From assembly GCA_965215885.1 (NCBI GenBank), contig CBDCEW010000035.1, positions 1 to 18,515 on the forward strand: a DNA stretch of 18,515 bases. Reading direction: 5' to 3'. Shown piece by piece: positions 1-18,515 of this stretch (positions within the stretch are counted from its first letter, which is position 1; the number at the start of each line of letters is the position of its first letter). The DNA comes from Candidatus Moanibacter sp. GTDB taxonomy: Bacteria > Verrucomicrobiota > Verrucomicrobiia > Opitutales > UBA2987. A model generated the notes under the pieces. It ran no database searches and had not been told where the DNA came from. It worked only from the letters and a program-made list of their open reading frames with translations. The position numbers and the translations under genes are program-made.

Positions 1-265
1 CCGAACTCGACGAAGACGAGGTCCCCATCCGGATCGAGAAAGGAGACGCGCGTCAGTTCGCGGATGTAGCCTGGTAAGAGGCAACTTCGGAGGTCTGCTC
101 GAATCCGTTATAGGTATTGCCCATGAACGGAGTAGCGTGATCGACCAGATCCGCATCGCCGAGAACGAGCAAATCGGCGGCGTGTCCGAGCAGTTGGCGT
201 TGTTCGAGTGTTTCGATCTTCATCGTTGAAGTCCGGAGTTTGCTAAGTTTTTTATTCTTTCTCAT
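1..265 (-). CDS. 5' end of a LEPR-XLL / planctomycete-extracellular-motif secreted protein; apparent 1-nt frameshift near 58-62; runs off the left edge
   Basis: ATG at 265 gives a basic N-terminus MRKNKKLSKLRTSTMK followed by IETLEQRQLL (LExRxLL motif). The frame stops at 53-55, but a shifted frame continues ELTRVSFLDPDGDLVFVEFG to the edge, resembling the DxDGDxVxV segment I recall from PVC surface proteins. Confidence 0.7.
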
Positions 266-645
266 AGGGAACAGATTTAGTTGAGGATATATTACTTTAG
301 GCACTGATTCCAAAGTGAATCATGAAATTTTGAGAGTGACAGATAACACCGAATTCTCATCGTAGTCGAGTCGAATTCAGTTGTAAGAGTGTGATTATTA
401 AGAACTTGTACGTTTTCCCAAGATTGGAATCGGTTGATTATAGTTCAAACAATGGGATGCTTTTCTCACTTAAATAGAACCTCTGTCAACAAAAAATTTT
501 GCCTCGTCTGCAGAATCTGTGGGTCGACTTTAGACATTCGTATCGTAATTCATTGTAAGGTAGAGACTTAACGGAAAATTCCTTGCACGCAGTGCAGTAG
601 ACCCAAAAATGATTTCAAAAGTGTTTTACCTAGGCTGTAGTTGTT

Positions 646-684
646 CAGGCGTAATCGTAGTTGATGGTCACGCTAAACACTTAC
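646..684 (+). repeat. Copy A of an imperfect 35-39 bp direct repeat (copy B at 2758-2792)
   Basis: CAGGCGTAATCGTAGTTGATGGTCACGCTAAACACTTAC vs CAGGCGTTTTCGTAGTTGATGG----GCTAAACACTTAC: 2 substitutions and one 4-nt indel. Confidence 0.85.
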
Positions 685-767
685 TAGACCTTATCCGAAA
701 AGCTACTGATTGGCCGCAAAGAGGCGCAAAAGGCGCAAGAAAAACTTGAGAAAAATCATTTTTTGGC

Positions 768-797
768 TTGATAAAAAGTGTCGCAACATGCTAGTGT
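768..797 (+). promoter_or_regulatory. Possible sigma70-type transposase promoter
   Basis: TTGATA (768-773), 18-nt spacer, TG-n-TAGTGT (792-797), upstream of an AAGGAG RBS and ATG 830. Confidence 0.3.
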
Positions 798-829
798 TTA
801 ACAACTTAAGATTAAGAAAGGAGTTAAAC

Positions 830-2380
830 ATGCCAACATGTGCGACAGAGGAGAACAAAAGCGATAAGACGCCCCTTAGCAACCTCATTCTGCCGGTTCC
901 AGACACGGATTTCCGTGATTTTCTGGATGAAGTTGAAGAATTGGCCGGGTTCGCGGCGCAAATCATCGAGGCGATCGAGAAGGATCTGGACGCCCATGCG
1001 CGTGAGAAGAAGAAACTTCGATTGGAAGATCGCAGGTTCTTTGAAGGGCGCACAGCGGAGCTGCCGGAGCTGGACATCGAGGAGGAGAATATTCTGGCTG
1101 CTGAATTGAATCTTGGGGCAGGCCGGCCGCGGATGCCGGCTTATGCGGTATACGTGTTCGTGATGATTCGAGGGTTTCTGGGTTCGTTGACCACGAAACC
1201 GGCACGGCGGTTTGTGCGCGAGTCGATGAGCTTGTACGGATTTTTGCAGAGCGGGGGACTGAGAATGCCGGCGGTGACGACGATTCTGGAGAACGTGAAC
1301 CTGGTCAGCCATACGACCCGCGAGTTGATCTTTGATAAACAGATTGGGTTTATCCTCCAGGAGCAATGGGACGATTTCGGGAAGCTGACGATCGACAGCA
1401 CCTCGGTGAAAGCAAACAGCTGCTGGCCCACCGATGGGAAGATTCTGAGCGGTCTTTTGATGCGGGCCAATCGTTTGGGTCAGAAGTTGCATGTCTTCGG
1501 GCTGGAGGATTTTCGCAAGGGATGGGTTGGGCGTTGGCTGGAGGAAATGGACAAGCTGGAGTTTCAGATTTGTCTGGCCGCGGGCAAACCGAAGTCGAAG
1601 GGCAAGCTGAAGAAACACTACCGGCGGTTGCTCAAGCGGGGCCGCAAGGCGGCCGACTCACTAACGGGGGAACTGAGCCATCTTGAAGAGGGCCTGTCGA
1701 TGGATTCACTGCCTCCCACTCGCCGGGAGCTTCTGGAGCGGGCATTGAGCCAGATCAGGGGCGATATTGCCGACGCCAAGCGGGTTGTTGAGTATGCTCA
1801 TGATCGGGTGTTTCACGAAAAGAAGCTACCGTCCACACAGAAGGTCCTGAGCCTCTCGGACGGATCGGCGGCCTACATCAAGAAGGGCAGCCGCAATCCA
1901 GTGATCGGGTACAAGCCACAACTGGTTCGCAGCGAAAACGGTTTTGTCACCAGCCTGATCGTACCGCAAGGCAACGCGGCAGACTCCATTGAGCTGGCGC
2001 CGGCCATCGGCGATTCGATCAAGCGCACCGGTGTCATTGCTGAACTGGTCAGCACCGATGACGGATATGCTTCGGCGAAGGGACGCAAGGAGGTGCTGAG
2101 CATGGGGGTAAAGCAGATCAGTATCAGTGGGGCGAAGGGCAAGAAGTTGACCACCCCCGAGGACTGGGAGAGCGAGGCGTATCGCGAGGCACGCCGCGAT
2201 CGCTCCGCAGTGGAGTCGCTGATGTTCACGATTAAAGATGGATTTGCCTTTGGCGAACTCGGCCGCCGCGGCATCGATGCGGTAGGCGATGAACTGCTCG
2301 AGAAGGTTCTGGCCTACAACTTCTGCCGCATCATACTGATGAAGAAACGCCGAGGGGAGGAACTGGAACAGGCAGCCTGA
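830..2380 (+). CDS. DDE transposase (IS5/ISNCY-like), 516 aa from the RBS-supported start
   Basis: Motifs TIDSTSVKANSCWPTD, KVLSLSD, GYKPQL, STDDGYAS, RSAVESLMFTIK. RBS AAGGAG at 818-823 favours ATG 830 over TTG 710. Confidence 0.9.
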   Translation: MPTCATEENKSDKTPLSNLILPVPDTDFRDFLDEVEELAGFAAQIIEAIEKDLDAHAREKKKLRLEDRRFFEGRTAELPELDIEEENILAAELNLGAGRPRMPAYAVYVFVMIRGFLGSLTTKPARRFVRESMSLYGFLQSGGLRMPAVTTILENVNLVSHTTRELIFDKQIGFILQEQWDDFGKLTIDSTSVKANSCWPTDGKILSGLLMRANRLGQKLHVFGLEDFRKGWVGRWLEEMDKLEFQICLAAGKPKSKGKLKKHYRRLLKRGRKAADSLTGELSHLEEGLSMDSLPPTRRELLERALSQIRGDIADAKRVVEYAHDRVFHEKKLPSTQKVLSLSDGSAAYIKKGSRNPVIGYKPQLVRSENGFVTSLIVPQGNAADSIELAPAIGDSIKRTGVIAELVSTDDGYASAKGRKEVLSMGVKQISISGAKGKKLTTPEDWESEAYREARRDRSAVESLMFTIKDGFAFGELGRRGIDAVGDELLEKVLAYNFCRIILMKKRRGEELEQAA

Positions 2381-2757
2381 ATCTGACCGCTTTGAAGCTC
2401 AGAGAAAAAAGCACCACGGGATGAGTATGCCTCCAGACAGCGGCAAATATACGTATTGTGCAGCAAGCCACGCCGATGGCCGCTCAATACCTGCTCATCG
2501 GCAGCGCCGGCAGCCTAAAACCCGAAACCTGCCAGCCATAGGCTGGTCCGCCCGTGGCGGAGAACCTTAAACCGCCCGCTCGAAAGGCTTTTCGAATGGG
2601 GTCTACCTAGAAGCGATAGCTGTACGCATTAACGGGCTCCGTCAAGTCGGAATATGAGAGTTTCTTCTTCGCGAAGATTTGTTTGAAAAAAGGGACCACC
2701 GACGACGGACCACGGCAACGGCAAGCCGAGCGACAGGAATGGGTTAATTCTCCGTCG

Positions 2758-2792: not shown

Positions 2793-2872
2793 CAGGGCAA
2801 TGCAGATACGGAACCACTGGTTAATGATTGCCAGAGATAATCTTTGGAGTAGCATCGGCGGGAGATTTCGAA

Positions 2873-4346
2873 ATGGCTGCTTCGACACAAATCGGTGAAC
2901 ACCTTCAGGCCACTGTGGACAAACCCTCTATGGTCGCCGACTCCTCCGATGTGTCTGAGGATAGAGCAGGCCGGTCGAACGAGCGAGTTCCCGAAACGGT
3001 TCTAAAGGCGGAAGGGCTATCGAAGCGCTACACATTGTGGAGTGAACCGATTGACCGGCTGAGGGCGCCGATTGTGCGCCGGGTTTCCAGGATGCCGCTA
3101 TTTCCCCGGGGTGTCTCCCGATGGCTGGCAGGGAGGGCGGACAGGATGGCCCGCGAATTTGCTGCCCTGCATGAAGTAAGCTTTGAAGTGAAGCGAGGCG
3201 AGAGCTTGGGGATCATCGGCCGGAACGGGGCGGGAAAGAGCACCCTCTTACAGATCCTGGCGGGGACCTTGCAGCCTACCACGGGCCGGGTCTATGCGAA
3301 AGGGCGGGTGGCGGCGCTTCTCGAATTGGGCTCCGCTTTCCAACGGCGAGTTTACAGGCCGCGAGAATGTCTACCTTCAGGCGGCCCTGGCGGGATTCGC
3401 GAAGCGGGAGGTCGATGAACGATTCGACGAAGTGGCCGCCTTTGCCAACATCGGTGAATTTGTCGAGCAACCGGTCAAGGTGTATTCAACCGGCATGATG
3501 TTGCGTCTCGCCTTTGCCACCCAGACCATCCTCGAGCCAGACATCTTCATTGTCGATGAGGCGCTGGCGGTAGGGGATGTGTTTTTCATTTCCAAGTGCA
3601 CCCGCTTTTTTGAACGGCGCCTGGAGGAGGGCATGTCGCTCATCCTGGTGAGTCACGACATACTCGCGATTAAGGCGCTCTGTCAAAGCGCGCTCGTTCT
3701 GGATGAGGGCAAACAGGTCTTTTTGGGTGATTGCAATCGGGCAGAGAGCATATTCCACGAGATTTACGAGGATGCGCAAAAAAGGAAGATGGAAGGGATT
3801 TCAACCAGCCGATCGGAAAGACCGCCAGCGGAGTTGAGGGAACTTGGGGGCGTCTCGTTACCGCCCAATGCGTTATTGAGGAACTGGCCCGCGGAAAACG
3901 AAATCGGGAGTCGCGAGGCGGAGATTATTCACTGTCATATTACAGATGAGGAGGGAAATCCCCGCCTTTCCTATTTTCAGGGTGAGACGGTAGGAGTCGA
4001 TATCTACGTGGAGGCCAGGGAGGTCGTGAAAGATTGCCATTTCAGCATCCAGGTGAGCGATTCCTACAATAATGTGATCTACGGGGTGAGCACGATCAAC
4101 TTGAAACAGAATGCGCAAACCCTGAAACCCGGAGAAATCAGAAGGTGGCGAGTTCGGATTGAAGGGGTGGGACTTGGTAAGTACTTAATCGACGCGCTTA
4201 TTTTCCTGGGCGATCGCGGTGACGGGTGCCCGGTCCATCATGTGCATCGAATTGGGGGGATCGCGGCGATTACAGTGGGGCAGAGAGGCTTGCGGCCCAA
4301 GTTTGTCGGGCTGGCGGATCTTAAGGCCAAGGTCGAATTCGAATGA
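2873..4346 (+). CDS. wzt: Polysaccharide ABC exporter ATP-binding protein with C-terminal Wzt_C-like domain; +1 frameshift at about 3341
   Basis: Walker A GRNGAGKSTLL lies in ORF 2828-3418. Signature YSTGMMLRLAFA, Walker B IFIVDEALAVGD and H-loop VSHD lie in ORF 3294-4346. Removing one C at 3340/3341 restores ELGSAFNGEFTGRENVYL. GGGAGA RBS precedes ATG 2873. Confidence 0.88.
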
Positions 4347-4441: not shown

Positions 4442-5145
4442 GTTCCACCCTGGGGCTGAAAGCCGCTTGACTTGGGTGCGTATTCGCCAGCAGCGTCATT
4501 GCAATATTCAGTACCTCGGTAGCGCGGAGCGCTTAACCATGTATAAATTCTGATGTCTCAGACCGCATCCGGTGAAGTAAAGAAAACCCCGCCGTATCTG
4601 GATCAAATACGAGAGATCTTCCCGGATTACCCTGTCAAGTCGCTTCACTATATAAAAGAGGGGTTAGCCAATGATACGGTAGTGGTCAATTGGGAATGGG
4701 TCTGCCGCTTTCCGAAGGATAAACAGTGGTCGCGGGATTCTTTTCGGCGCGAAGTAAAAGTCCTGGAGCTTGTGGAAAAGCGGGTGGATATCCCGACGCC
4801 GAAATTGGAGAAGAGAGGCACGGACTATTTCGTCTATCGATATATCAGCGCCGAACCCCTTCTACAACATCGCCTGAAGCGGTTTACGGAAGACGAACAG
4901 AATCGAATTGCGGAACAGTTCGCGATTATTCTGCGGCGGTATCAACAGATTTCGATGGATGACTTGAAGTCACACGGAATTCGAAATTCGCCAGTCAACC
5001 GGACGCACGATGATTGGCTGCAACTTTACAGCCGGATCGAAAGGAATCTGCTTCCAACGATGACGGCGCGCAACCGGGAGTGGTTTAAAGAGCACTTCGC
5101 ACCGATGCTCGGGGACAAACAGTGGATGGATTACGAACCCAAGCT

Positions 5146-7519
5146 CAGACCTCACTATATTGCCCCTCTAAAGGCACTATGCAATCGCAAGTTTAAATCC
5201 CGATTTTTTGCCCAGTCGGAAGATGATTCTTCGGCCTGAACCGTCGGGCATCAGTAAGGGCTTCTGATTGAGAGTTTGCAGATACTCAAGCACCACCGCC
5301 TGCACCCGAGGGGGATAAGTTGCGGTGGGGAATAAATGCGCTTCGACCGCACAGCCCCTCTCTATAAGAACGCCGTCACTGTGAGTCAAATTGCGAAACA
5401 GATCGTGGTCGTCACGATAGTTGTTGTAGCGAGCTTTAAAGGGTTCGAGCTGCTTGTAGAAGCTGTTACGGGCGAAGATTTTCAAGGCATCCATGAGGGA
5501 CTTGTTAGCGGTGTCCAGGCGGACATAGTTTTCATCAATGAGGCGCTGCAGCCTCGAGCATTCGGTGTCGATTTGCTCCAGTTCGAGTTGGAGGGCTTTG
5601 AGGGCCTGATCGAGTCGACGGATCTTTTCGCCCCTTGAGGCGCTTTTGCCCGGGTGGGCATGCTCGGCCAGGAGCAGTCTTTTCAATTCTTCGGTGCATT
5701 GCTGTTTTTGCTTCAGGAGGGCTTTGGCGGCACCGCTTTTCTCCTGCTTGTCCTCAAGGTGTTGGGCTAATCGCTTGTAGTGGACGGTGCGATAAGAGGT
5801 GATCTGATTAATCCCAAAGTGCTTATCGAGGTATTTGAAGTCATTCTCCTGAATCCAGCGACTGAACATCCCTTTGATTACCTCTTCATTTCGGGCCTGC
5901 TGATCGGTCGCCAGGATGCTCACGGTAATGGTTCGATTTTTTGGATTGGTCGCCTCCACGATCCACTGCACCAGTTGAGGATTTTTCTTCCAGGGGCCCC
6001 GCTGATAGCGAAGATGATACTCCTGGAGATCTTCGGCATGGTTGCGCGCGCGCTGCAGGCGCAACTGCCCGTCGATCCGTTGGAGGGGCTGGGCGCTGGC
6101 CTTGTAACCTTTTTCCCAGGTAATGATTTCGAGTTGAGGGTGCTCCACGATGGCTTCGTAAAACCACTCCGCGGCGATCGCCCGGTCCACGTAAATGCTC
6201 ACCTTCTTATCAGCCGGCAACTGCACCAGCTCGAGCATCGCTTCGCAGTTGGGGATAAACCGTTCCCTTATATCCTCATAGTTGTCAGTGCTCGCAAAAT
6301 AGACCGGATAGCCCTTGAGGGTATGAATAAAATCGCTGTGGAGCGCTTTGTCGGCCAGACGGATACCCGGACACCATCCCGCCAGCACCTTGCTCATTCC
6401 GGTGTAATGTTTGGTGTGCGGATCATAATAAAAGCTCTCTTCATCCGAAGCATTCAGGCCCCTCGCGTTCACTCTGAGGATCTCTCTTAAAAGCCCTTCA
6501 TCGGCCAGGGCGCTAAGGCTTTGGCGTTGCAGATAGGGGGTATACAGGACTCGCCCGATGAGTTTTTGCAGGTCTTCGAGATCGAGCAGTTTGCTCTGCT
6601 CGATATTGACCGCGGCCAACAACCCGCAAGCCACCCATTGTTTCAAAAGCCAGCCCTCTTCGCGATCAATCTGAGCGACTTCTCTGAGCGCGGCACTGAA
6701 CAGAAGTACTCCCAGGTGCCGATACCATTGCACCGCTTCGGAGCTCTCCCTCGAAAAATCGGGAGACCCCTTGCGATTGTCCCCTTCGCTTTCGGGGCTA
6801 TTTTCTGCTTCTTGCTCCTGTTCGTCCCTCCCCGAGTCCTCCGGGCAATCCCAGGGAGTCTCCCGATTTTGCGCCCTCTCGGCTTCGGCCTCCTTTGCCC
6901 GGGCCTCTTTAAGCTCCTTAAAGACAGGGCGCAAAGTTTCCCCACTGAGGTTAACTCCGAACACCTCCTCGATCTCCCCCCGTATCTTCTTGCTGTAGCC
7001 ATACCGACTCTCCCCATAGATCTGCCCGAAGCGCACCCGCACAAAACTCCGGATTTCCCTCGTCAATTTGCGATGAGCGCTGCGTCCCGCCAGCACTCGC
7101 GCTAAGGTCTCGGCATCTCCGCTTTGAAGCGCCTCCCCCCACCGCTTCATCGTTTTGGGGTCAACCTCAAATTGCTTCTCTAAGCGCCCTTTCTTCAACC
7201 CCGCATTGTAGAGGCGCCCCTCCAATAGCTTGAATTCAACTTGCTCCCGATCGTCCTCTACGACTTCAAAAAGCTCATGCCCGTAATAGACGTGCAGTTT
7301 GCCTTCCCTCAGATCCCGATAGACCGTGATCGAGGGATTACCCTTGTCCACTCCAAGGATGCACTGTAAGAAGGTCTCTTCTTTGACGGTAGGTTTCTCC
7401 ATTTTTCTTCGAATTTGATGGTTCGAAGATGAAGCCTACCGTTTTCTTTAGCTCTTAAAAGCCGGGAATTGTATCTGCGATTGCCCCCTGCCCGCCAACC
7501 CGCATGATAGCGAGTTCTG
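5146..7519 (-). mobile_element. Insertion sequence, 2374 bp, family not assigned, 5-bp target duplication
   Basis: AAGCT at 5141-5145 and 7520-7524. Terminal inverted repeats CAGACCTCACTATATTGC and CAGAACTCGCTATCATGC match at 14/18. Excision restores the kinase frame. Confidence 0.95.
5177..7402 (-). CDS. Large putative DDE transposase, 741 aa
   Basis: Fills the element. HTH-like N-terminal region (RLEKQFEVDPKTMKRW), candidate catalytic triad YYDPH / YVDRA / RWIQENDFK, C-terminal coiled coil. Confidence 0.85.
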   Translation of the reverse strand: MEKPTVKEETFLQCILGVDKGNPSITVYRDLREGKLHVYYGHELFEVVEDDREQVEFKLLEGRLYNAGLKKGRLEKQFEVDPKTMKRWGEALQSGDAETLARVLAGRSAHRKLTREIRSFVRVRFGQIYGESRYGYSKKIRGEIEEVFGVNLSGETLRPVFKELKEARAKEAEAERAQNRETPWDCPEDSGRDEQEQEAENSPESEGDNRKGSPDFSRESSEAVQWYRHLGVLLFSAALREVAQIDREEGWLLKQWVACGLLAAVNIEQSKLLDLEDLQKLIGRVLYTPYLQRQSLSALADEGLLREILRVNARGLNASDEESFYYDPHTKHYTGMSKVLAGWCPGIRLADKALHSDFIHTLKGYPVYFASTDNYEDIRERFIPNCEAMLELVQLPADKKVSIYVDRAIAAEWFYEAIVEHPQLEIITWEKGYKASAQPLQRIDGQLRLQRARNHAEDLQEYHLRYQRGPWKKNPQLVQWIVEATNPKNRTITVSILATDQQARNEEVIKGMFSRWIQENDFKYLDKHFGINQITSYRTVHYKRLAQHLEDKQEKSGAAKALLKQKQQCTEELKRLLLAEHAHPGKSASRGEKIRRLDQALKALQLELEQIDTECSRLQRLIDENYVRLDTANKSLMDALKIFARNSFYKQLEPFKARYNNYRDDHDLFRNLTHSDGVLIERGCAVEAHLFPTATYPPRVQAVVLEYLQTLNQKPLLMPDGSGRRIIFRLGKKSGFKLAIA

Positions 7520-7864
7520 AAGCTGGTTAACGGCGACCTTGGGCCCTACCACGTGCTCTTTAAAGAGAAGGAGAATAGGATCGTCGGTTGGATGGATTTC
7601 GGCACCGCGGGGATCGGCGATCCCGCAGGAGACTTTGCCTGTATTATCTATAATTATGGCGAATCGTTTCTAAAGCGGATGGCGCGTTTCTATCCCGAGA
7701 TCGAAGAAGCGCTGGACCGGGCGCGATTCTGGGCCGGCACGCTCGAGCTGGAATGGATACTCGGAGGTGCTCAGGCCAAGAGGCTTCCCTATTTTCTTAC
7801 CCATATCGGCTCAGCCAAAGATGCCAAACCGATGGGTTGTCCGTTTTACGTTTGGTATGGAGTA

Positions 7865-9405: not shown

Positions 9406-11610
9406 TTATTTCGCATGCCAGATGCGGAGGAGGCGGCGCCAGATACGCTTTCCGTAAGTGGTCGGCTTACCTTTGATGGTGGCCTGCACGCGCATGCCTT
9501 CGCGTTCGATGTGAGTTGATTCCGGTAGATCGGATTCCGCGAGGAAGAGCGCGAAGGAAGGCTCCTGGGAAGAGCCGGGGGCGAATCTCTCGTTGGGCGC
9601 CGGCCCTCCGAATAAGGACAGCATACCCGGCAAGTATTCATCCATCGTCATCTTCTTCTGTGGAAGAACCGCAATCTCACTCTTGAAGGATTCTCCAGTG
9701 GCCTGCCAGCGACCCTTCACGGCGCTTCCGATTTCAACCAGTTGCGCCTGGTCTTCCGTAAGTGGGATTACAAGCTTGAATCGGCTCGTATTTCCGATGC
9801 GGAAGATTGTAGTGTGTTCGGGAATCGATACTCCAAGGAGGCGGTTGAGATCCGGCGTGAGAACCTGTCCCGAAATCGATGCTTTCAGTTGGAGCTTAGC
9901 CGCCCTTTGCAGGGCCTGTTCATGGGCCGCAAGAGCAGCCTCAAAAGCGGCGGCCGATTCGGGCGCGGTGGATCGCTCTTGCCAGGAATCGCTGCCTTCA
10001 CTGTTTATGAGCTTGAGTTTGGCCAACTCCATATTTGCTTCCGTGAATACCAGAGCCTCTTCCACTTCTGGATTCTTAAGGAGGGCGAGGAGTTGGCCCG
10101 GTTCTACTCGATCTCCGGTTTCCACGTAGATCTGTTCTACAGTACCGGGGACTTCTACACCGACTTGCTCGGCTTCGGCGGATAGGACGACGCCTTGCTG
10201 CTTGATTCTGAAATTGCTGGGCAGAATAGAAAGGAGAGCGAGGACGATGAAAAGGGCTGTCCCGATATTTCTCAATCGTCGCGAGGTAGAGGTGACCTTC
10301 ACTATGTGGGCTTTCGGTTTCATGGCATCCATGACAGCTTTCACAAAGGGAAAGAAAAGAAAAGTCATTTGGACGATGACGCCAAAAGTGTCACCGAAAG
10401 GCTTGAGACCGAAGGGCTCAAGAACACGCGTAAATATTTTGCCGATGGAGTATATGACAAAAAACATGTATATGTAGGCGGACACGGCATAGAGATAAAA
10501 GACTGTTCCGTGCCTGTCGTCCTCAATGGCCTGCTCCTGCGCTCGATTGCGAATGCCGAAGAAGAGCTCCTGTAACTTCAGCGAGCCAAAGGTGAAGGCT
10601 TTCGCGCGCAGGTTGGGGATTTCCAATAGATCGGATATTATGTAATACCCATCGAATCTCATGAGCGGATTGAGATTGAAAAAAATCGAATTTACACTGG
10701 CCACCACCATCGCGTTGAAAGCGATGTTTCGCGACAGCCCGTCGGGGAGATAAAGCCAGCACCAGGCGGCAATGGAGGCTAGGAGAAACTCTGTATATAG
10801 ACCTGCCAGGGTGGTGAATATCTTGTGTCTCTTATGGCGCATCATCCAGGCGTCGGATGCGTCGACGTAGCCGCAGGGGGTAAACATGATAAAGCAGAGG
10901 CCCATCTCGTGCACCTCTCCTCCAAAATGCCGGCAGGTCATGGCGTGCCCAAACTCGTGGAGCGTTTTAATAACCGCGATCGTGACCCAAAGGAGGAGCA
11001 GGTTCCTGGGAGAGAAGAACTCTATGGTATTTTCGCTAAAAGCCTCCCGGTTCAGAGAAAGCCAGAAGAGCGTAAGAAGGAAGAAGCCAACGGCCAGGAG
11101 AATACACCCTCGCGACCACAGAATTCGGAATGTCCGGGTCAATTTGCCGAGCCAGGGACTCGGATCGACCAGCGGTATTTTGAAGAATATGAAACTTGCG
11201 ATAAAATGGACCCATCTTTCGGCGAGGGGTTTCTTTTTCTTCCTCTCCTTCTGAGCGAAATCGACGAAGCGGCGGGCGTTGATGTTGAGGAGGCCTTTAT
11301 TTCCAATTTGCCGAATGAAATGATGGATCTCCTCCAGGGGTTGTTCGAGATGGGGAAATTGCCGATAGTAATCCTCTCCAATTCGCTTTAGAGTGCGTTT
11401 GCCGTTCAAGAGGGTGACCAGAAAGGCTTCTTCCGGCTTGATGCGAAAATAGGTGAGGGCGAGAGGATCTTTGATAACATAGTAATCCTCGTTGCGGAAC
11501 TGCTGGCGCTGCATAATGAGATCGGCGCGGAAAGCGGCCGGAACCGTTTCCTTGAGCTTTTTCTCCAATTCAGCTTCTGCCTCTGATTTGGAGATGATTT
11601 GGCCGGTCAT
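9406..11610 (-). CDS. Peptidase M50 (site-2 protease) fused to a HlyD/MFP-type periplasmic adaptor domain
   Basis: KTLHEFGHA (HExxH), AGLYTE, NLNPLMRFDGYY, multiple TM helices. C-terminal lipoyl half-motifs (PGTVEQIYVETGDRVEPGQLLALL; LKASISGQV) flank a helical hairpin. Start is ATG 11610 or GTG 11631. Confidence 0.92.
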   Translation of the reverse strand: MTGQIISKSEAEAELEKKLKETVPAAFRADLIMQRQQFRNEDYYVIKDPLALTYFRIKPEEAFLVTLLNGKRTLKRIGEDYYRQFPHLEQPLEEIHHFIRQIGNKGLLNINARRFVDFAQKERKKKKPLAERWVHFIASFIFFKIPLVDPSPWLGKLTRTFRILWSRGCILLAVGFFLLTLFWLSLNREAFSENTIEFFSPRNLLLLWVTIAVIKTLHEFGHAMTCRHFGGEVHEMGLCFIMFTPCGYVDASDAWMMRHKRHKIFTTLAGLYTEFLLASIAAWCWLYLPDGLSRNIAFNAMVVASVNSIFFNLNPLMRFDGYYIISDLLEIPNLRAKAFTFGSLKLQELFFGIRNRAQEQAIEDDRHGTVFYLYAVSAYIYMFFVIYSIGKIFTRVLEPFGLKPFGDTFGVIVQMTFLFFPFVKAVMDAMKPKAHIVKVTSTSRRLRNIGTALFIVLALLSILPSNFRIKQQGVVLSAEAEQVGVEVPGTVEQIYVETGDRVEPGQLLALLKNPEVEEALVFTEANMELAKLKLINSEGSDSWQERSTAPESAAAFEAALAAHEQALQRAAKLQLKASISGQVLTPDLNRLLGVSIPEHTTIFRIGNTSRFKLVIPLTEDQAQLVEIGSAVKGRWQATGESFKSEIAVLPQKKMTMDEYLPGMLSLFGGPAPNERFAPGSSQEPSFALFLAESDLPESTHIEREGMRVQATIKGKPTTYGKRIWRRLLRIWHAK

Positions 11611-11635: not shown

Positions 11636-13150
11636 TCATTCTTCCACATTCTGAAAGGGATGGTCGACCTGAGGCCCCCCAATAAGATACTGTATCTGCG
11701 CCACGGAAACGTTGTTGTCAAAGATCGCTTCTTGAAGATTAATCTGCGAGCGGCGCAGGCCTAGTTCGGCGTTGAGAACGTCATCCACCTTGGCCTCTCC
11801 AATCTCGTACATCTTCTGTGCCTGTTCCACACTCCTCAAGCCATAGGAGACTGAACTCTCTTGCGCAGTTATGACGCTTTCGGATTGATCGAGCTGCGAG
11901 TAGAGTTCCAGGAGACGCGAGCTGATGTCGTACTCGAGCTTATCTGCGTCCATCTGCGATTTGCGCAACGCGGCCTGGTTGGCCTTTAGGCGTCCCAGGT
12001 TGGCGCCGGCGTCGAAGATATTCCAGGTCCCGGATATACCGACCATCCAGCCGTCGAGAGTAATATTCTGATTGAAATAAGAGGAGTTTACACGATAGTC
12101 GGCAAAACCCGAGATTTTGGGATGAAACTCGGAGACGGCGGCGCGCACGCCCGCTTCGGCGGCTTCGATTTGGACTCTTGCCGCGAGCAGATCGGAGCGA
12201 TTGTCCAGGGCCATCTCTCTGGCTTCTCGGAAAGGGACGATAAAGGTTTTGCGGACGATGCTTTCGCCGGTAGGAATACCGATATGTGCATCAATAATCT
12301 CAGGGAGGCTGAGGATCCTACGAAAATACTGTTCGCTGTTCGTAAGGTTACTCTGCGCCCGTGCGGAATCAGCTCGCGCGTTCATAAGTTCGGTTTGGAC
12401 GCGAAGTTTATCCAGTTCCGGAACCTCGCCGAGGTCGTATCTTCTTGAAGTTTGACCGAGGAGTTTCTCAAAAGTGTCGACGGTGTTCCCATAAACTTGC
12501 AGGATGTTCTTTCGATAAAGCAGGTTGTCGAAAGCCTGCTCGACCAATGCGGCAACCCGGTAGGCGGTGCCTTGTGCATCGTAGTAAAGTTTCTTCTTTA
12601 AGAGCCGCTGAACTTCGGTCTGGTTTCTGATGCTTCTTCCATCGTAGATGAGAAAGTTGATCTGCAGCATGAGACTGTAACTTTTATCGGCTATCGCTGT
12701 CTGTTCTGAGGGCACAAAAGGATCGGTCACAGGTGAACGGTCAAGGAGGGCTTTATCCCGCTGGCTCGCCGCGCCGGTAATTGCCAGTTTCGGATAAAGG
12801 CCGGCCCGCACTTGCATGTAGACGCCCTCTTGCCGGTCGAGCGCGTTGCGCGCCGCAAGAATCTCGGGGTTTTCATCCATCGCCCGGTTTAGAGCCTTTT
12901 CCAACGTCCAGACCGTATTCTCCAGTTCTTCACGATTCTCGAGGCGCGAAAGATAGGCGCTATCCGCGGTCCTCTTCTTGAATATATTCTTTAGAAACCG
13001 TGAAGGTTCCGCGGATTCCAAGTTTCCGGGTGTCGAGGTATCCTTGGCCGCCATCGCGCTGGATGCCGTAACCGTCAGAGCAAGTCCGGCAATCGTTCGC
13101 AGAAAGTAGCACTTCCAAAATCGATTTCCGGTTTCAGCACAATGGTTCAT
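11636..13150 (-). CDS. TolC-family outer membrane channel
   Basis: Signal peptide ending SSAMA. Two OEP repeats: TLEKALNRAMDENPEI...YPKL...YDLGEVPELD and EAREMALDNRSDL...FHPKI...WNIFDAG...YEIGEAKVDDVL. ATG 13150 preferred. Confidence 0.93.
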   Translation of the reverse strand: MNHCAETGNRFWKCYFLRTIAGLALTVTASSAMAAKDTSTPGNLESAEPSRFLKNIFKKRTADSAYLSRLENREELENTVWTLEKALNRAMDENPEILAARNALDRQEGVYMQVRAGLYPKLAITGAASQRDKALLDRSPVTDPFVPSEQTAIADKSYSLMLQINFLIYDGRSIRNQTEVQRLLKKKLYYDAQGTAYRVAALVEQAFDNLLYRKNILQVYGNTVDTFEKLLGQTSRRYDLGEVPELDKLRVQTELMNARADSARAQSNLTNSEQYFRRILSLPEIIDAHIGIPTGESIVRKTFIVPFREAREMALDNRSDLLAARVQIEAAEAGVRAAVSEFHPKISGFADYRVNSSYFNQNITLDGWMVGISGTWNIFDAGANLGRLKANQAALRKSQMDADKLEYDISSRLLELYSQLDQSESVITAQESSVSYGLRSVEQAQKMYEIGEAKVDDVLNAELGLRRSQINLQEAIFDNNVSVAQIQYLIGGPQVDHPFQNVEE

Positions 13151-13219
13151 AAGACCACGATTTGCATGGCGCAGCGCAGCCGCAACCAAGATAGATTTGG
13201 CGAGGGCAACAATCCCCGG

Positions 13220-13764: not shown

Positions 13765-15186
13765 CTATTTCGAAACGGTAAGCAGGTACATATCCGTCTG
13801 CTTGTCGTCGGCCAAAACCGGTTTATAGACCGGCTCCTTACCAAGTTCCCGATAGATTTCCGGCAGGTTGTATTTCTTTAGTGCGAGGGCCTTGTTGGGC
13901 CCGGCCGTGCTCTCCAGGTTGTAGACCGCTTTTTTGCAGACGCGAAGCGCCTCCTCCGCCATTTTTTTTGCCAGAGGAGCATAGATACTGGAAAAATACC
14001 CCGTGGTGATCACCACGTCAAAGGATCCATCCTCGAACGGCAATGGCTCCCCGGCGTCGAAACTAACAGTGGTGACTCCCTTTTCATCCATCATCTCCCG
14101 GCCAAGTTCGATTTTCTCGCTGGATTTATCCGCACCGGTCCATTTCCAACCGGGTTGAAGTTTCTTTAGCAGGAGCAAATCCTTTCCCCACCCGCAGCCG
14201 AGAAGAAGCGCGGAATCGATCCCCTCGGTGTTTGCAATTTCGGAGGCAAAAAAGGTAACAAAATTGCTCGGCTCAGGCACCTTCCCCTCCCTGAAATGGC
14301 TTATTTCGCGTTCACCGGCAAGAATACCGATTTGATCATCGCGCAAATCGGGATAAGGTAAGAGAAGAGACTGGAAGAGCGAACCGTTGTATGCGATAGC
14401 GTGGAACTTCGTCTGTATTTGTTTTGGATCTGAATTGGGAAGACCGAATTCGAAAGCGACCACGCTGGCTCCCCAGAGAAAGGCGTCGGCAAGGTTGCCG
14501 ATTTTGAAATCGATGCCCTTAATTCTCCAGGTCGTCTCTTTTTGATCCTTCTGGTTGTTGCAATAGTTGTAGGCTTGTTCGTCGAGAAGTCCCCAGATCA
14601 AAAATACCGGGGATCCGATAAACTGCAGGAATCCTATCATGGTATTGTAGTCGAGACGGGGATTGAGCTTTATCGGGTGAACCAGCATTTCCGGAGATGT
14701 CTTAACCGGGGGGAGAGTGTTCTCCAGAAACCTTAACGCCATCGAATTTAGTGAGGACATCCAGCAACGCCCGTCATCTTTCAGGTGTTTAAGAATCTCC
14801 CTGAAAATCAGGACATCGCCGGCCCAAAACTCGTGGGTTTGATAAAACACCAGGGTATCGAATTTTCCGTATTTCTCGACCTGTTTCCCGTACCAGGCGA
14901 AATCCCAGGGGTCGGCAGTGAGGTCTGAAAAGTCGTCCAGGTAATGGTGCATGGCTGGCCGGGGCTCGACCAGAGATAACCTCAATCCGGAACCGATCCT
15001 TCCCTGCAATTCTCTGGCCATGCGCCCATCGCCGGCATTTACGATCGCGACATGGGTGGCTTCGTTATTTACGCTCTCGCAGATGCTTTGCTCAAGCGTG
15101 TTGAGAGAAGGGGAAGAATTCAGGCAGCGCATGTTAGAAAGATTGTTGAAACTGGCCCATAGTGAAGAGGGTGGCTCGCTTATCAA
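13765..15186 (-). CDS. Class I SAM-dependent methyltransferase, probably two tandem MTase-like domains
   Basis: C-terminal LLLGCGWGKDL, WTGADKS, PLPFEDGSFDVVIT. N-terminal degenerate IVNAGDGRMA...KFDTLVF...LKHLKDDGRC. Start uncertain (TTG 15186 or ATG 15132). Confidence 0.8.
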   Translation of the reverse strand: MISEPPSSLWASFNNLSNMRCLNSSPSLNTLEQSICESVNNEATHVAIVNAGDGRMARELQGRIGSGLRLSLVEPRPAMHHYLDDFSDLTADPWDFAWYGKQVEKYGKFDTLVFYQTHEFWAGDVLIFREILKHLKDDGRCWMSSLNSMALRFLENTLPPVKTSPEMLVHPIKLNPRLDYNTMIGFLQFIGSPVFLIWGLLDEQAYNYCNNQKDQKETTWRIKGIDFKIGNLADAFLWGASVVAFEFGLPNSDPKQIQTKFHAIAYNGSLFQSLLLPYPDLRDDQIGILAGEREISHFREGKVPEPSNFVTFFASEIANTEGIDSALLLGCGWGKDLLLLKKLQPGWKWTGADKSSEKIELGREMMDEKGVTTVSFDAGEPLPFEDGSFDVVITTGYFSSIYAPLAKKMAEEALRVCKKAVYNLESTAGPNKALALKKYNLPEIYRELGKEPVYKPVLADDKQTDMYLLTVSK

Positions 15187-15276: not shown

Positions 15277-15331
15277 TTGGTAATAATAACTGGTTACCAA
15301 GTTGACGAGTGGCCGGAGGAATCCGTAAAAG
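15277..15331. promoter_or_regulatory. Palindrome and possible promoter in the divergent intergenic region
   Basis: TTGGTAA-N10-TTACCAA (15277-15300) sits directly before TTGACG (15302-15307), an 18-nt spacer and TAAAAG (15326-15331). Confidence 0.3.
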
Positions 15332-15359
15332 GGCCACCTATAACCCTTTTTTCTAATCC

Positions 15360-17585
15360 ATGTCAAATACTTCCAATGTACATGCGCCGGATGTGCAGCG
15401 CTGTTCCAACGACATTTCCGCGCGGCTCGCGAAAGAGGCTAAGGATCCCCCTGACCTCGCAAAATATCTCCAGGTTCATGCCGAGTGCATCAATCAGGCT
15501 TTGAATCCTCGAGGATTTTCCTATGAGATGTTGAACGGGAGCAATTTCCAGCGAGTGGTGGGGAAGAATCTGGAGGATTTGAACTTCAGGGAATCGCCCC
15601 AACAGGAGGAGAGTTTCAGGAGATTGACCCGCAAAGTTGCGAACGAAAGAGCTCCAGCTTTGCTCAAGCCCTTTACCTTGCCCACCGGTGCTGAAGGGAT
15701 GCGAGGCCTCGAGGTTGAGGACGCACCGGCCGCCGAAGAGCTACCCTTCTTTAACAGGACGCCTTTTCAGCATATTTTCGTCCCCATTCCGCTTGAAAAT
15801 GATACCGCCGGAATTCTGCGTGCCTGGTTTGTCGATGGGGACGCCCAGGAGAGCCAGGCCCGTCTCACGATTCTTGAGGCCGCTTGCCGGGAGATTGAGC
15901 TCTATTTCAAAACGCGGCGCGTGGCCGATGTCACACAGGAACTGACGCGCCTCAATACCTACAAGCATCTATTGGAAGAATTGTCTGGCGATCTGGATCT
16001 TGAAACGGTTTCCTGGAATCTCGTAAACTATGCTCGGGAAGCGGTATCTTGCGACCGGGTCAGCATCTTCACGGTAAGAAAATACAACAGGGATCGTTGG
16101 AATCGAGAGACTTCCCTTGATGCCCTGGAGTATCACTTCGAGGCCTGTAGTGGGTTGAAAAAGCCGCACCCAAGGAGTGAGCAAGGCGAACTCCTGAAAG
16201 CGATGGCAAAGGAAATGGTTTTTTCTACTATTCCGAAAAAGGAAGAGGAATCGAAGGGTCTCGAATCGATCAGCGAGGCGCCTTCAGGCCCGGAGAGCGA
16301 AGAAGATGGGTCTTCGCGGAATGGGAAGCGGGCAATGAAAGAGGGAGATGCTGAGAAGGGGAAGGCGCCAGAGTCGGTAAAGAAGCCGGAAAAAGCACTC
16401 GTTCCGGCGCCGCGCTCGAAACCGCCCAAGATTCGCCTCGCTCTAGTGGAGCGCGACGCCTCAAAAGTGGAAACGCGGAGCGAAGCTATCAACGCCTATT
16501 TCGATCACATTCCGATGAATTGGGCCACCGTAGTTCCGCTCTTCGATTGGGATTACAGAGTGTGCGGCATGCTCCTCTTCGAAGGGCGCGAACAGTCCGA
16601 AGACATGCGGGCAGGGCTATTTCGCATGCGGGATCTGACGATTTCGGGCGGGCGCGCCTTAGGGACTGCTCTATATTGGCACCAGAGCAAATCTCTTCGT
16701 TCGGCAAGGGTCTGGAATGAAGTGAGAGGGAAACTCGCGGCTACGCCTAATCGTACTCTGTTCTGGAAAGTTGCGCTACCCATGATCCTGGCGATCGCAA
16801 TCCTCGTTTTTCCCTTACCCTACAAAATTGACGGAGAAGCCACCATTCTTCCACGGAATTTCAGATCCCTCCCCGCCCTCGTTTCTGCCCGCATGAATGA
16901 TGTGCGCGTTCGTGAAGGCGACACTATTAGGGAGGGGCAGGTGCTCGCTCGTTTGGATACGCGGGATATCGAGATTCAATTGCGCCAGGCGCGTCAGGAA
17001 TTTGAGCGGTATATGACTGAAGCGGATCGGGCTCAAAGCGTGGGGCGAGAGACTGAAATGCAAATTGCGCGCTTAAACGCCAGAAAGATTTCTGCGACGA
17101 TTGAGAGACTCTCCACCGATATCGAGAAGGCGACCATTCGAGCGCCCTTCGATGGGCTAGTAGTAGGTCCGCCCAACCTCTCCCAGGAGGTGGGAAAAGT
17201 GACAGGAGTTGGCGAGTCGATCATCGAAGTAGCACAGCCGGGAGATTGGGATGTAAAAGTGGAAGTGCGCGAGCAGGATTTGGTGTATCTTGAGAGTCGC
17301 TTTCGAGATATTGGGGAGTTATCGGCGGAATTAAAACTAACGGCGGATCCCACCCGCGACTACAATTTGCTAGTGAGCGATTCCTCTCAGTTTGCCTATG
17401 GTCTGGAAACGAGCAGCAGCGAGTATTCCTTCGCTCTAATCCTTCCCATGGAAATGGATGCAGAGAATACCGAGATCCTCAAAGTAGGATTTGCGGGGAA
17501 AGTGAAAATTGATGGGGGTATCAAACCGATCGGCTATATCCTCTTTCACGATTTTGTGAACTTTATCAAATTGCGGTGGTTTTAG
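15360..17585 (+). CDS. HlyD/MFP periplasmic adaptor with a long cytoplasmic N-terminus containing GAF-like segments
   Basis: GAF-like IFVPIPL..GILRAW and VSCDRVSIF...VVPLFD..CGMLLFE; one TM helix; MFP motifs VRVREGDTIREGQVLARLD and IRAPFDGLVV around a coiled coil. Confidence 0.85.
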   Translation: MSNTSNVHAPDVQRCSNDISARLAKEAKDPPDLAKYLQVHAECINQALNPRGFSYEMLNGSNFQRVVGKNLEDLNFRESPQQEESFRRLTRKVANERAPALLKPFTLPTGAEGMRGLEVEDAPAAEELPFFNRTPFQHIFVPIPLENDTAGILRAWFVDGDAQESQARLTILEAACREIELYFKTRRVADVTQELTRLNTYKHLLEELSGDLDLETVSWNLVNYAREAVSCDRVSIFTVRKYNRDRWNRETSLDALEYHFEACSGLKKPHPRSEQGELLKAMAKEMVFSTIPKKEEESKGLESISEAPSGPESEEDGSSRNGKRAMKEGDAEKGKAPESVKKPEKALVPAPRSKPPKIRLALVERDASKVETRSEAINAYFDHIPMNWATVVPLFDWDYRVCGMLLFEGREQSEDMRAGLFRMRDLTISGGRALGTALYWHQSKSLRSARVWNEVRGKLAATPNRTLFWKVALPMILAIAILVFPLPYKIDGEATILPRNFRSLPALVSARMNDVRVREGDTIREGQVLARLDTRDIEIQLRQARQEFERYMTEADRAQSVGRETEMQIARLNARKISATIERLSTDIEKATIRAPFDGLVVGPPNLSQEVGKVTGVGESIIEVAQPGDWDVKVEVREQDLVYLESRFRDIGELSAELKLTADPTRDYNLLVSDSSQFAYGLETSSSEYSFALILPMEMDAENTEILKVGFAGKVKIDGGIKPIGYILFHDFVNFIKLRWF

Positions 17586-17604
17586 GATTCTTGAAGGACT
17601 TCAA

Positions 17605-18515
17605 ATGAAAGAATTGATTCTGCCGAAAAATTCCCACGTTCTTGCGAACGCGGCTACTGTGCTCCGTAAGCTATTGAAATGTGTAGCCGCGTTCGCAAGA
17701 ACGTGGTTGCGGATTCCGAAAGGACAGCTTTTTCAGCAGAATCTAGAATTGAGAGTTGGAATTGTGAATCGCTTACGTTGGCATTCACTTCCGAGGAAGC
17801 TTATCGGTTATGCCATTCTTTCGTTTTGGGCTATTACGGGGGTTTGTGTGAGTCATGCTCAAGACTCATCGGCAGGTGCTTCGAACTCAGGCTTTACCTA
17901 TTCTGAATACTCCCGTAATGCCGTTACACGCGGTTCGCTGCGGTCGGTAATGGTGCCCTTGGAGGATATCAGGCTCAGTTCGGCCGCAGCCGGTGTCATC
18001 GCCGGGTATCATTTGGAAGAGGGCGATACTCTGAAGGCCGGAGACATCATTCTTGAATTGGATTCTGAAATTGAGAGTTCCGTGGTCGACGAGGGCATCG
18101 CCCGGGTAAACGGGACAAAGGCCGACTTTGAGAGAGCGCAGAAGAATTACGCACGAGCCAAGGCTCTGCGAGAAGACAATATCAACAGCCAGAAACAGTA
18201 TGAAGAAGCAAAGTATTCGCTGGCCCTGGCCGAGAGCCGCTACCAACAGAGCCTGGCCAATCTCGCTATGGCGGAGGTCCGTCTCCGAGAGCGGTTTATA
18301 AGAAGCCCAATCGACGGAATTTTCCTGAAAAAGAGCAAGTCCGTCGGGGAATCGGTGGAGCGGCTGGAAACGGTTGCACGGGTCGTCGACGCCTCACGCC
18401 TCATGCTCGTTGTCTATTGTGATACGAGCCTCTTTGGGCAAATTGAAAAAGAGGCTAACTATCTGATCGAGCTTCTCGATGGACGGCACAGAGGTAAGAG
18501 AATTGAAGCCAAAGT
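17605..18515 (+). CDS. RND/HlyD-type periplasmic adaptor (MFP), partial, runs off the right edge; absent from the ORF track
   Basis: Frame open from ATG 17605 (GAAGGA RBS at 17593-17598) to the end. Signal-like LIGYAILSFWAITGVCVSHA-QD, AGVIAGYHLEEGDTLKAGDIILELD, IRSPIDGIF. Alternative GTG start at 17764. Confidence 0.88.
   Translation, partial: MKELILPKNSHVLANAATVLRKLLKCVAAFARTWLRIPKGQLFQQNLELRVGIVNRLRWHSLPRKLIGYAILSFWAITGVCVSHAQDSSAGASNSGFTYSEYSRNAVTRGSLRSVMVPLEDIRLSSAAAGVIAGYHLEEGDTLKAGDIILELDSEIESSVVDEGIARVNGTKADFERAQKNYARAKALREDNINSQKQYEEAKYSLALAESRYQQSLANLAMAEVRLRERFIRSPIDGIFLKKSKSVGESVERLETVARVVDASRLMLVVYCDTSLFGQIEKEANYLIELLDGRHRGKRIEAK
17634..17706. repeat. GTAG-type REP doublet (REPIN-like), perfect 24-bp inverted repeat
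   Basis: CCACGTTCTTGCGAACGCGGCTAC (17634-17657) / GTAGCCGCGTTCGCAAGAACGTGG (17683-17706), 25-nt spacer. Each arm is GTAG plus its own small palindrome. Confidence 0.9.

Follow-up and report, generated by a model that had tools for sequence, protein, structure and literature searches.

A SecA-less set of M50 protease-MFP, GAF-MFP, MFP and TolC genes that travels with LExRxLL-tagged proteins and may export them

The window analysed here (the whole stretch of DNA, 18,515 nt) is an entire contig (C35 of genome G000), so that no reading past either of its edges is possible within this assembly. The four transport genes found in it are real (Table 1), and the TolC and the three architecturally different MFPs claimed in a previous, sequence-only reading are all present. 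According to the domain and ORF annotation of the window, these genes form two divergent pairs flanking a methyltransferase gene, a close homologue of which occurs in 3 of the 15 fetched stretches of window-type loci. The leader-bearing gene is about 9 kb away, with two multicopy IS elements, the Wzt gene and kinase-like genes in between; it is not co-transcribed with the transport genes, an observation that speaks against the explanation we prefer below.

Table 1. Features of the window and the matches or signatures by which they were assigned
Feature	Position (nt)	Strand	Remarks
Leader-bearing cargo gene, 5' part	1..265	-	ATG at 265; LEQRQLL nt 188-208; runs off contig
ISNCY-like insertion sequence, passenger outside the system	684..2605	+	NF033593 E=1e-76, below cut-off
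Wzt-type glycan ABC ATPase	2828..4346	+	ABC_tran + Wzt_C; one-base frameshift near 3340
Two APH/phosphotransferase-like genes, passengers	4553..9262	+	first split by second multicopy IS, 5145-7520
RRE(PqqD-like)-M50 site-2 protease-MFP fusion	9406..11610 (ORF to 11721)	-	Peptidase_M50 + HlyD domains
TolC-family outer-membrane channel	11636..13189	-	PF02321 (OEP) E=4e-50; TIGR01844 E=9e-39, below cut-off
SAM methyltransferase, accessory, outside the core	13765..15186	-	Methyltransf_25 E=2e-15
GAF(-GAF)-TM-MFP fusion	15360..17585	+	HlyD_3; TM aa 466-484; GAF by family
Stand-alone MFP, cut by contig end	17764..18515	+	TIGR01730 107.6 vs 94.9 bits, over cut-off

Several details of the assembly had to be corrected. 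About 70 codons into the leader ORF there is a stop, after which the gene resumes in another frame; this stop results from a one-base frameshift, the contigs of runs X1, X3 and X17 (three studies) carrying one extra base near nt 60. The X17 contig reaches 3,200 nt past the left edge of the window. The ISNCY-like element, present in dozens of copies in G000 (97-100% identical), is skipped in the contigs of runs X1 and X3, while the frameshift of the Wzt gene corresponds to one base that runs X1 and X17 omit. The Wzt-type ATPase belongs to the surrounding surface-glycan island and adjoins the M50-MFP gene also in G006, G135 and G216, where an ABC2 permease is found 13-31 kb off. The earlier statement that the window holds neither a HlyB/PrtD ABC exporter nor an RND permease stands, with the correction that this frameshifted ABC ATPase lies in it.

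The M50-MFP probably starts at 11610 and comprises 734 aa, as does P0001 (residue positions below follow the numbering of the 771-aa ORF). It consists of an RRE (about aa 55-145), the zinc-binding HExxH (255-259) and NxxPxxxxD (349-357) motifs within a region of about seven hydrophobic segments (206-500), and an MFP part from about residue 505. Its top NCBIfam match is the daptide metalloprotease NF041824 (E=7e-51 over aa 80-426), the score being below the curated cut-off (173.6 vs 300 bits). The zinc motif (H255, E256, H259, N349, P352, D357) is intact in all 133 rows of the family alignment, 65 of which are database homologues selected without regard to the motif, in agreement with the protease claimed before; the RRE had escaped that reading. 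The family carries an N-terminal domain of the PqqD/RRE leader-binding type, as judged from profile comparisons: the best PDB matches of the family profile are PqqD 3g2b (E=3e-4), TfuB1 (0.006) and TbiB1 (0.15), and PF05402 matches 6 of 12 N-terminal segments, the window's own segment being below Pfam detection and weak in NCBIfam (TIGR04248 E=0.025).

As to the GAF-MFP, the MFP fusion claimed before was found, and its GAF part is supported at the level of the family: the window protein alone gives no GAF match, but GAF_2 matches 13 of the 21 aligned members, the closest orthologue among them, and the best PDB matches of the family profile are mostly GAF domains (E 0.001-0.03). The stand-alone MFP, 54% identical to its G006 orthologue, has a predicted Sec-type signal and a hairpin of 79 aa with an RLS tip (RxxxLxxxxxxS). 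Its start is inferred, since the stretch by which the ORF extends back to 17605 is repeated throughout the genome, with about 95 repeat matches upstream of the gene.

The N-terminus of the cargo is basic and has the ExLExRxLL consensus, taken from the available part of Seeger 2021 (PMC8567305), at residues 18-26 from the ATG, as seen in an alignment of the window leader with 30 neighbours of M50-MFP genes or paralogues. A hydrophobic core is absent (maximum 19-residue hydropathy 0.81), as the previous reading had noted. The window leader is the best match in G000 to PF07595, a model that at E<=10 also matches in 7 of 14 control genomes, yet it falls short of the cut-off (15.2 against 25.5 bits), and the NF012209 LEPR model gives no match at it; only two leader genes were found in G000. 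The giant substrate expected at this locus was not borne out: in G006 the orthologue at the syntenic position, with 65% identity over 72 aa, has 1,119 aa and the cargo paralogue 321 aa, cargos in the window's clade ranging from about 110 to >1,500 aa. The window cargo, whose C-terminus lies beyond the contig, is likely to be a protein of the surface or S-layer type, about 1,100 aa long. Its counterpart in G216 matches the RsaA S-layer protein (E 1e-20 to 3e-23) and has an RsaA-like C-terminus, which also speaks against our preferred explanation; in Caulobacter the C-terminus of RsaA is a C-terminal type I signal. The counterparts in G006 and G135 gave no significant PDB match, RsaA included.

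The four-gene set is widespread and travels with LExRxLL-tagged proteins across genomes. Using two leader models built in this analysis, we found a leader in 58 of the 68 M50-MFP-positive genomes (10 being unmatched by both models) vs 12 of the 232 genomes without an M50-MFP match among 300 Verrucomicrobiota genomes, so that the association suggested before is present; after dropping 11 genomes in or near the training sets, the former proportion is 47/57. With the independent NF012209 model, co-occurrence was seen in 22 of the 23 genomes matched at E<0.002 and in 24 of 33 at E<=0.05. A leader gene lies within the fetched DNA at 15 of 19 window-type loci, the other four being contigs of 2.8-5.9 kb, and in 12 related loci it is directly 3' of the MFP gene. 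In G022, the M50-MFP, TolC and GAF-MFP are present on a 22-kb contig that ends inside the M50-MFP; neither a stand-alone MFP nor a leader was found on it, which tells against the explanation preferred below. Leader variants follow the M50-MFP clades: the LExRxxFD type occurs only beside clade C (7/7 leaders), clades A and B are accompanied by the ExLExRxLL type, and the two leader models have no genome in common; this match, however, reflects one deep split among genomes that are also related, and is therefore no independent proof.

These data are best explained, with a probability of roughly 0.55, if the four genes form one envelope-spanning exporter of ExLExRxLL-tagged proteins, guided by the leader. 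The proposed steps are as follows. The cytoplasmic PqqD/RRE domain would bind the leader, as suggested by its fold family and the daptide analogy. The zinc site-2 protease would then cut just after the leader, while the M50 membrane helices and the TM helix of the GAF-MFP could provide the entry gate. The chain would pass through the MFP tube, docked to TolC by the RLS tip of the stand-alone MFP, and the cargo would here be a surface or S-layer-type protein, about 1,100 aa long, in a glycan island. The membrane protease is likely to recognise and remove the LExRxLL tag during export.

As for the energy source, in the loci and genomes tested the window's clade lacks a dedicated ATPase gene in the vicinity. 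A secondary SecA lies near 35 of the 41 clade A loci, as the previous reading had stated for some such gene sets, but near none of the 20 loci of clade B, to which the window belongs; the same holds for 25 clade C and 13 metagenome loci. A single SecA_DEAD copy was found in 13 of the 15 genomes checked, six of them being single-contig genomes that carry the module; the single-contig G216, G159 and G305 and the 90% complete G000 have one SecA each. A canonical HlyB partner, named in advance, if just outside the window, as one finding that would speak against the proposed system, was encountered neither in G000 nor in the related genomes tested, and the same applies to PrtD and C39 partners: TIGR01842 (PrtD) exceeded its cut-off in 0/5 genomes, this model being narrow since it did so in 0/14 controls as well; TIGR01843 (HlyD) did so in 0/5, the window MFPs scoring 23.9-33.9 bits against 208.65; and the C39 peptidase PF03412 was found in 0/5 genomes vs 7/14 controls. 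By size and BLAST, there is no RND-sized ORF directly beside an MFP gene in G006, G216 or loci L148-L158. Generic ABC-exporter matches number 3 to 10 per genome, and further ABC exporters are encoded in G000, among them an ABC+HlyD pair on contig C101, which counts against the preferred explanation. Of three possible sources of the push, housekeeping SecA comes first, with somewhat less than an even chance, given the SecA paralogue used by clade A; proton-motive force, for which an invariant membrane Glu311 is a candidate, or folding may be considered a weaker possibility, and an unlinked ABC transporter is improbable.

The strongest of the alternatives, although still unlikely, is a two-step route, in which the leader acts as a non-canonical signal through housekeeping SecA/SecYEG, the RRE-M50 part as its receptor and as the signal peptidase, and the role of the MFPs and TolC is limited to passage from the periplasm across the outer membrane. 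It would agree with the absence of a dedicated ATPase in clades B and C, the sole ATPase ever linked to the module being of the SecA type, and with a domain of about 240 aa after the leader that recurs in 29 G000 ORFs, many of which have a hydrophobic N-terminus. We know of no established case of TolC/MFP tubes moving large proteins out of the periplasm; moreover, the leader itself has no hydrophobic core, and the cytoplasmic domains and TM anchors on two of the MFPs fit a continuous conduit. LEPRxLL giants of Chlorobium are reported, in the available part of the source, to stay in the periplasm of axenic cells, a pool that suits this route and speaks against the exporter preferred above; that source assigns them to another route.

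Less probable still is that an unlinked ABC transporter exports the cargo C-terminus first and the leader is a tether or regulatory tag, clipped by M50 on a GAF-sensed signal, or that M50 cuts a membrane regulator. Such clipping would follow LapD/LapG-like logic, and the RsaA-like C-terminus in G216, the GAF sensor domains, the LuxR-type regulator adjoining the M50-MFP in G216 and the generic ABC-exporter matches would all suit it. Against it are the absence of C39 and of over-cut-off PrtD and HlyD in the five genomes tested, the lack of an RsaA match for the G006 and G135 cargos, and the cargos of family f30 (about 110-145 aa), too short for a tether plus an adhesin. The last alternative is that small peptides or glycans are what the module exports or matures, the leader-bearing surface genes merely sharing surface-biogenesis islands with it. 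Family f30, in which short leader proteins and a radical SAM/SPASM protein accompany the module together with a stand-alone PqqD, would suit this view, as would the Wzt and glycosyl genes near window-type loci, but it is very improbable given the leader genes directly 3' of MFP genes, the genome-wide association, seen also in clades without Wzt, and the leader variants tracking the M50-MFP clades.

The planctomycete/LEPR leader, which marks some of the largest bacterial proteins, was reportedly proposed as an export signal in 2004. Our analysis links this leader, for which no paper assigning an export route was found, to a gene module described in 2015 without a cargo, so that the route of the one and the cargo of the other can be put to a direct test. 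A minimal machine of four genes is what the SecA-less clades define, and it poses the question of how proteins are driven through TolC with neither an ABC transporter nor an RND permease nor a SecA of its own; swap experiments should be simple, given the short natural cargos and the clade-specific leaders, and a portable N-terminal tag for TolC-type export would serve biotechnology. The core of the module might, as we tentatively suppose, represent a new class of protein secretion system, in which a RiPP-style recognition element reads a non-hydrophobic leader and a site-2 protease-adaptor replaces the ABC transporter, with no dedicated ATPase, clade-specific leader codes, cargos from modified peptides of about 110 aa through S-layers to >10,000 aa, and the secondary SecA as one clade's optional add-on.

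Canonical type I secretion relies on HlyB/HlyD/TolC (RsaDEF for the S-layer), and peptidase-containing ABC transporters couple cleavage of an N-terminal leader to export. The window set shares the MFP and TolC conduit with the former, but differs from both: it lacks an ABC exporter and a C39 domain, its MFPs are of three different kinds, its protease is a metallo- instead of a cysteine protease, and its leader is not of the double-glycine type. That a trimer-of-dimers ring can contain more than one adaptor has a precedent, in the available part of PMC4446572, in TriABC-type pumps; these have two adaptors and, unlike the window set, contain an RND permease and transport small molecules. For the Planc_extracel PF07595/LEPR-XLL NF012209 leader, no export machine is assigned in the literature found (via the available part of Seeger 2021); the window differs in that its motif falls short of both curated cut-offs and its cargo is mid-sized. 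The daptide protein MpaP/DapP, in the portion of bioRxiv 2023.03.08.531785 at hand, is a stated leader remover with an N-terminal RRE and an intramembrane HExxH protease, as in the M50-MFP family with its RRE and HExxH/NxxPxxxxD zinc ligands, and the ELExMEAP of daptide precursors resembles LExLExR; unlike the window set, the daptide system has no MFP fusion or TolC, separate ABC export transporters and short-peptide substrates. The closest relative, contrary to the earlier impression that no description existed, is the locus reported by Kamneva, Poudel and Ward (2015; PMC4452313), i.e., a secondary SecA_DEAD, Peptidase_M50/HlyD, GAF/HlyD and HlyD/Biotin_lipoyl, with or without OEP, for which the M50 helices were already proposed as an inner-membrane pore; its main text, as available, names no 'leader', 'giant', Planc_extracel or cargo and notes no RRE. 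The window has the same M50/HlyD, GAF/HlyD (by family), stand-alone HlyD/biotin-lipoyl and TolC, likewise without an ABC transporter, and differs in that the defining secondary SecA was not found in its clade or in clade C; its gene set is a SecA-less variant of this known module.

The transport genes of the window, each present in one copy in the assembly of G000 (the Candidatus Moanibacter genome; 6.4 Mb, 90% complete), form two divergent pairs with a methyltransferase gene in between, and the closest named homologues belong to Opitutae/Verrucomicrobiota. The leader gene is separated from them by two multicopy IS elements, a frameshifted gene of a Wzt glycan ATPase and APH-like kinase genes. 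G006, a genome of the same family, shares the gene order (MFP, GAF-MFP, methyltransferase, TolC, M50-MFP, Wzt, leader gene) and has no IS elements there; the APH-like genes are likewise missing at the Wzt/M50-MFP position. One of the intergenic repeats makes the MFP ORF look longer at its N-terminus than it is. A LuxR-type regulator gene is located directly 3' of M50-MFP in several window-type loci (L116:17052-18158, Pfam-checked, with equivalents in L148 and L155-L158); the window has none. Elsewhere in G000 (C101:65404-68330) there is a separate ABC exporter and HlyD-like pair with its own adaptor.

Features of the window, with coordinates in nt
Feature	Position	Strand	Remark
Leader gene	start at 265	minus	about 9 kb from the transport genes
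IS element, first	684-2605		dozens of near-identical genomic copies; two other runs lack it here
IS element, second	5145-7520		dozens of near-identical genomic copies; splits an APH-like gene
Tandem APH/phosphotransferase-like genes	4553-9262		between Wzt and M50-MFP; all under resistance-family cut-offs
M50-MFP	9406-11721	minus	pair 1
TolC	11636-13189	minus	pair 1
GAF-MFP	15360-17585	plus	pair 2
Stand-alone MFP		plus	pair 2; truncated by the contig end
Intergenic repeats	4366-4400, 7950-8330, 13270-13570, 17605-17745		short; 15-95 blastn matches across the genome

The leader ORF ends after about 70 codons, and the homology to a paralogue on contig C4 goes on in another frame. Contigs from the sequencing runs X1, X3 and X17, belonging to three studies, carry one extra base near nt 60 (a site outside the coverage of X4), those of X1 and X17 have one base fewer at nt 3340, within Wzt, and those of X1 and X3 bypass the first IS element; the breaks thus probably go back to errors of assembly or to strain alleles, and we reject the view of the leader gene as a pseudogene. 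Reading past the edges, as the sequence-only reading had proposed, was impossible within the assembly, which ends at both of them, the window being the whole contig C35; tblastn with the G006 orthologues found neither the remainder of the cargo gene nor the MFP end on other G000 contigs. One X17 contig extends 3,200 nt beyond the left edge. This extension is compatible with a protein of the length of the G006 orthologue (1,119 aa), so the cargo of this locus is not the giant that had been expected. The C-terminal part of the counterpart in G216, another genome with a window-type locus, matches the Caulobacter S-layer protein RsaA; the counterparts in G006 and G135 have no significant PDB match. 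Judged from these sequences, the cargo may have a surface or S-layer role. The contig depth at the leader gene in an RNA run is 128.8, a figure that cannot rank expression, and a promoter scan of nt 1-700 gave 2 sites versus 0.9 expected, an uninformative excess. The domain of about 240 aa following the leader occurs in 29 ORFs of G000 (window 1-220, minus strand, and 28 other ORFs; C4:48327-49292), mostly at the C-terminus of host proteins, many of which have hydrophobic N-termini; it has no Pfam match, and the ESM Atlas returned unnamed clusters only, all under 0.9. Its role may be to anchor proteins to the surface or to glycans, in combination with either export signal.

The association of M50-MFP with the leader was followed through 300 evenly drawn Verrucomicrobiota genomes, at least 90% complete, 68 of which encode M50-MFP (E<=1e-30). 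Of the 33 genomes that the curated model NF012209 matched at E<=0.05, 24 were M50-MFP-positive, and at E<0.002 the proportion was 22 of 23; PF07595 was rejected as a marker, being too insensitive (6 of 301 genomes, 0 over the cut-off). Our own ExLExRxLL model matched 31 genomes (28 positive) and failed on 40 of the 68. Fetching 20 loci of this unexplained group revealed a variant leader, LE(D/K/E)RIxFD(G/A)A, with DUF4347 then in 7/7; the corresponding LExRxxFD model matched 39 genomes, of which 30 were positive, these accounting for 30 of the 40 failures, and the two models had no genome in common. With both pooled, the co-occurrence predicted by the sequence-only reading is borne out: the leader is found in 58/68 M50-MFP-positive versus 12/232 negative genomes, counts that overstate the statistical strength because related genomes are included and are not independent. 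After removal of 11 training-related genomes it is found in 47 of 57 positives. Neither of our models matched in 10 of the 68, and two M50-MFP-negative genomes (G080 and G142) have strong leader matches. At the level of loci, 15 of 19 window-type ones (G000, G006, G135, G216, L034, L035, L146-L158; several near-identical) have an adjacent leader gene, the other four being short contigs. The leader consensus among neighbours of M50-MFP genes is FxLExLExRxLLxA, in which the invariance of L, E and R arises partly from the selection of sequences.

In M50-MFP itself the residues H255, E256, H259, N349, P352 and D357 are invariant in 133/133 aligned rows, 65 of which are homologues taken from databases irrespective of the motif, most others having been chosen by it. 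The protein has about seven membrane segments by average hydropathy, one with an invariant Glu311; a Walker A motif is present in none of the five cluster proteins. A metagenome scan with one protein gave no match. The N-terminal 100 residues of M50-MFP are, at the family level, a PqqD/RRE-like domain. The top five PDB matches of a 35-sequence profile include PqqD (E=3e-4), TfuB1, TbiB1 and a second PqqD, and PF05402 matches 6 of 12 excised N-terminal segments, that of the window not among them; hhalign of the profile against one stand-alone PqqD, a single sequence, gave an uninformative probability of 6%.

As to an energy source, the M50 tree (106 regions, quick maximum likelihood, SH-aLRT only, midpoint root) has 41 rows in clade A, 20 in clade B, which is from Verrucomicrobiota and includes the window, and 25 in clade C; the other 16 and 4 rows form two groups of mostly planctomycete origin. 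Loci with a secondary SecA gene within 10 kb number 35/41, 0/20, 0/25, 3/16 and 0/4, respectively, and among those with flanks of 6 kb or more on each side they number 19/21 in clade A, 0/13 in B and 0/18 in C; the gene was found in 0/13 metagenome loci. Of 15 genomes checked, 13 have one copy of SecA_DEAD, among them the single-contig G216, G159, G305, G282, G193 and G250; G006 has an additional short one at another locus, of clade A, and in G059 there are two copies, both full-length. A genome search for SecA2 at E<=1e-150 gave 20/300 and overlooked copies seen in the loci of G240, G293 and G033, so 48 is too high a figure for the genomes lacking SecA2, and our conclusions are based on the counts per locus and the Pfam copy numbers. 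The lack of a canonical ABC partner is upheld: in five genomes tested per model, there was no HlyD or PrtD match over the cut-off and no C39 domain, generic ABC exporters being present. Wzt was rejected as an orphan motor ATPase, as its islands in G135, G216 and G006 also encode an ABC2 permease; also against it, G159 has the module without Wzt_C.

Directly established are the genes and domains present, the conservation of the motifs, the adjacency and co-occurrence of the leader, and the lack of an ATPase linked to the tested loci. Beyond these we propose a joint reading, with a probability of roughly 0.55: the leader would be bound by the RRE and cut by the M50 domain, and the chain would move through the MFP/TolC tube, driven by the housekeeping SecA or the proton-motive force. 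A two-step route, by Sec and then by TolC, is unlikely; a report of Chlorobium LEPRxLL giants in the periplasm speaks in its favour. We consider it still less probable that M50-MFP is a protease serving retention or regulation and that the cargo is exported by its C-terminus. That the genes share islands with no functional link is very improbable. A further possibility would be a secretion class that is leader-guided and ATPase-free.

The range of leader proteins is wide. Clade C genomes with a single SecA encode ones of thousands of residues (9,364 aa in G193, 4,014 aa in G250), and clade A cargo reaches 20,466 aa. After the module come, in family f30 (G159, G120, G138 and G305), genes for a stand-alone PqqD, for a radical SAM/SPASM protein and for two leader proteins about 110-145 aa long, an arrangement that is RiPP-like and connects the leader with RRE biology. 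These f30 loci (L119:5078-9822 in G159; also L120-L122) further contain an unassigned ORF and an NTP_transf_5 nucleotidyltransferase gene, and their short leader proteins are His/Asn-rich. G006 carries, at C1:1.77-1.79 Mb and C3:2.23-2.26 Mb, both a SecA-less cluster with the 1,119-aa cargo and a SecA2-type one with a 4,940-aa cargo, which makes it a natural test of leader specificity. The module of clade C also occurs in streamlined Pelagibacteraceae genomes (L056, L069, L072, L079, L096, L098, L107); four of these loci have long ORFs next to it that are cut by the locus edge.

Adaptor hairpins, parsed by regex in 57/89 stand-alone, 51/104 GAF and 26/117 M50 ORFs, have median lengths of 79, 60 and 61 aa, respectively, and RLS-type tips occur in 20, 2 and 0 of those parsed. 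RLS is, in the available text of PMC4446572, a proposed TolC-docking motif that is not universal. Lengths and tips thus hint that the stand-alone MFP docks TolC and the two anchored MFPs make the inner part.

The available text of Kamneva et al. (2015; PMC4452313) takes a secondary SecA_DEAD protein as the centre of the module, lists Methylobacterium extorquens AM1 as one carrier, notes the absence of an ABC component, proposes the M50 helices as a pore and leaves the function open; its main text has no "leader", "giant" or Planc_extracel, and large neighbours may be listed in its supplements. In the part of PMC8567305 available, the leader is a proposed export signal. Within the open-access literature, subscription journals being outside this scope, we found nothing that joins the module with leader and RRE or that describes forms without SecA, and the RRE-mining papers and adaptor reviews consulted do not mention M50 in a relevant sense. 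Good comparative evidence suggests that ExLExRxLL-leader proteins are the module's cargo. The window system is a real SecA-less variant of the published module: the latter, as far as the available text goes, is built on the secondary SecA_DEAD, whereas the clade B loci lack it (0/20). Among NCBIfam models, the one that M50-MFP matches best is that of the daptide intramembrane metalloprotease (E=7e-51, under the cut-off). According to the accessible part of the daptide preprint, RREs are there fused to a site-2 protease, and the same enzyme removes the leader; the M50-MFP family has this fusion in common with it, and the daptide precursor motif, ELExMEAP, is similar to LExLExR.
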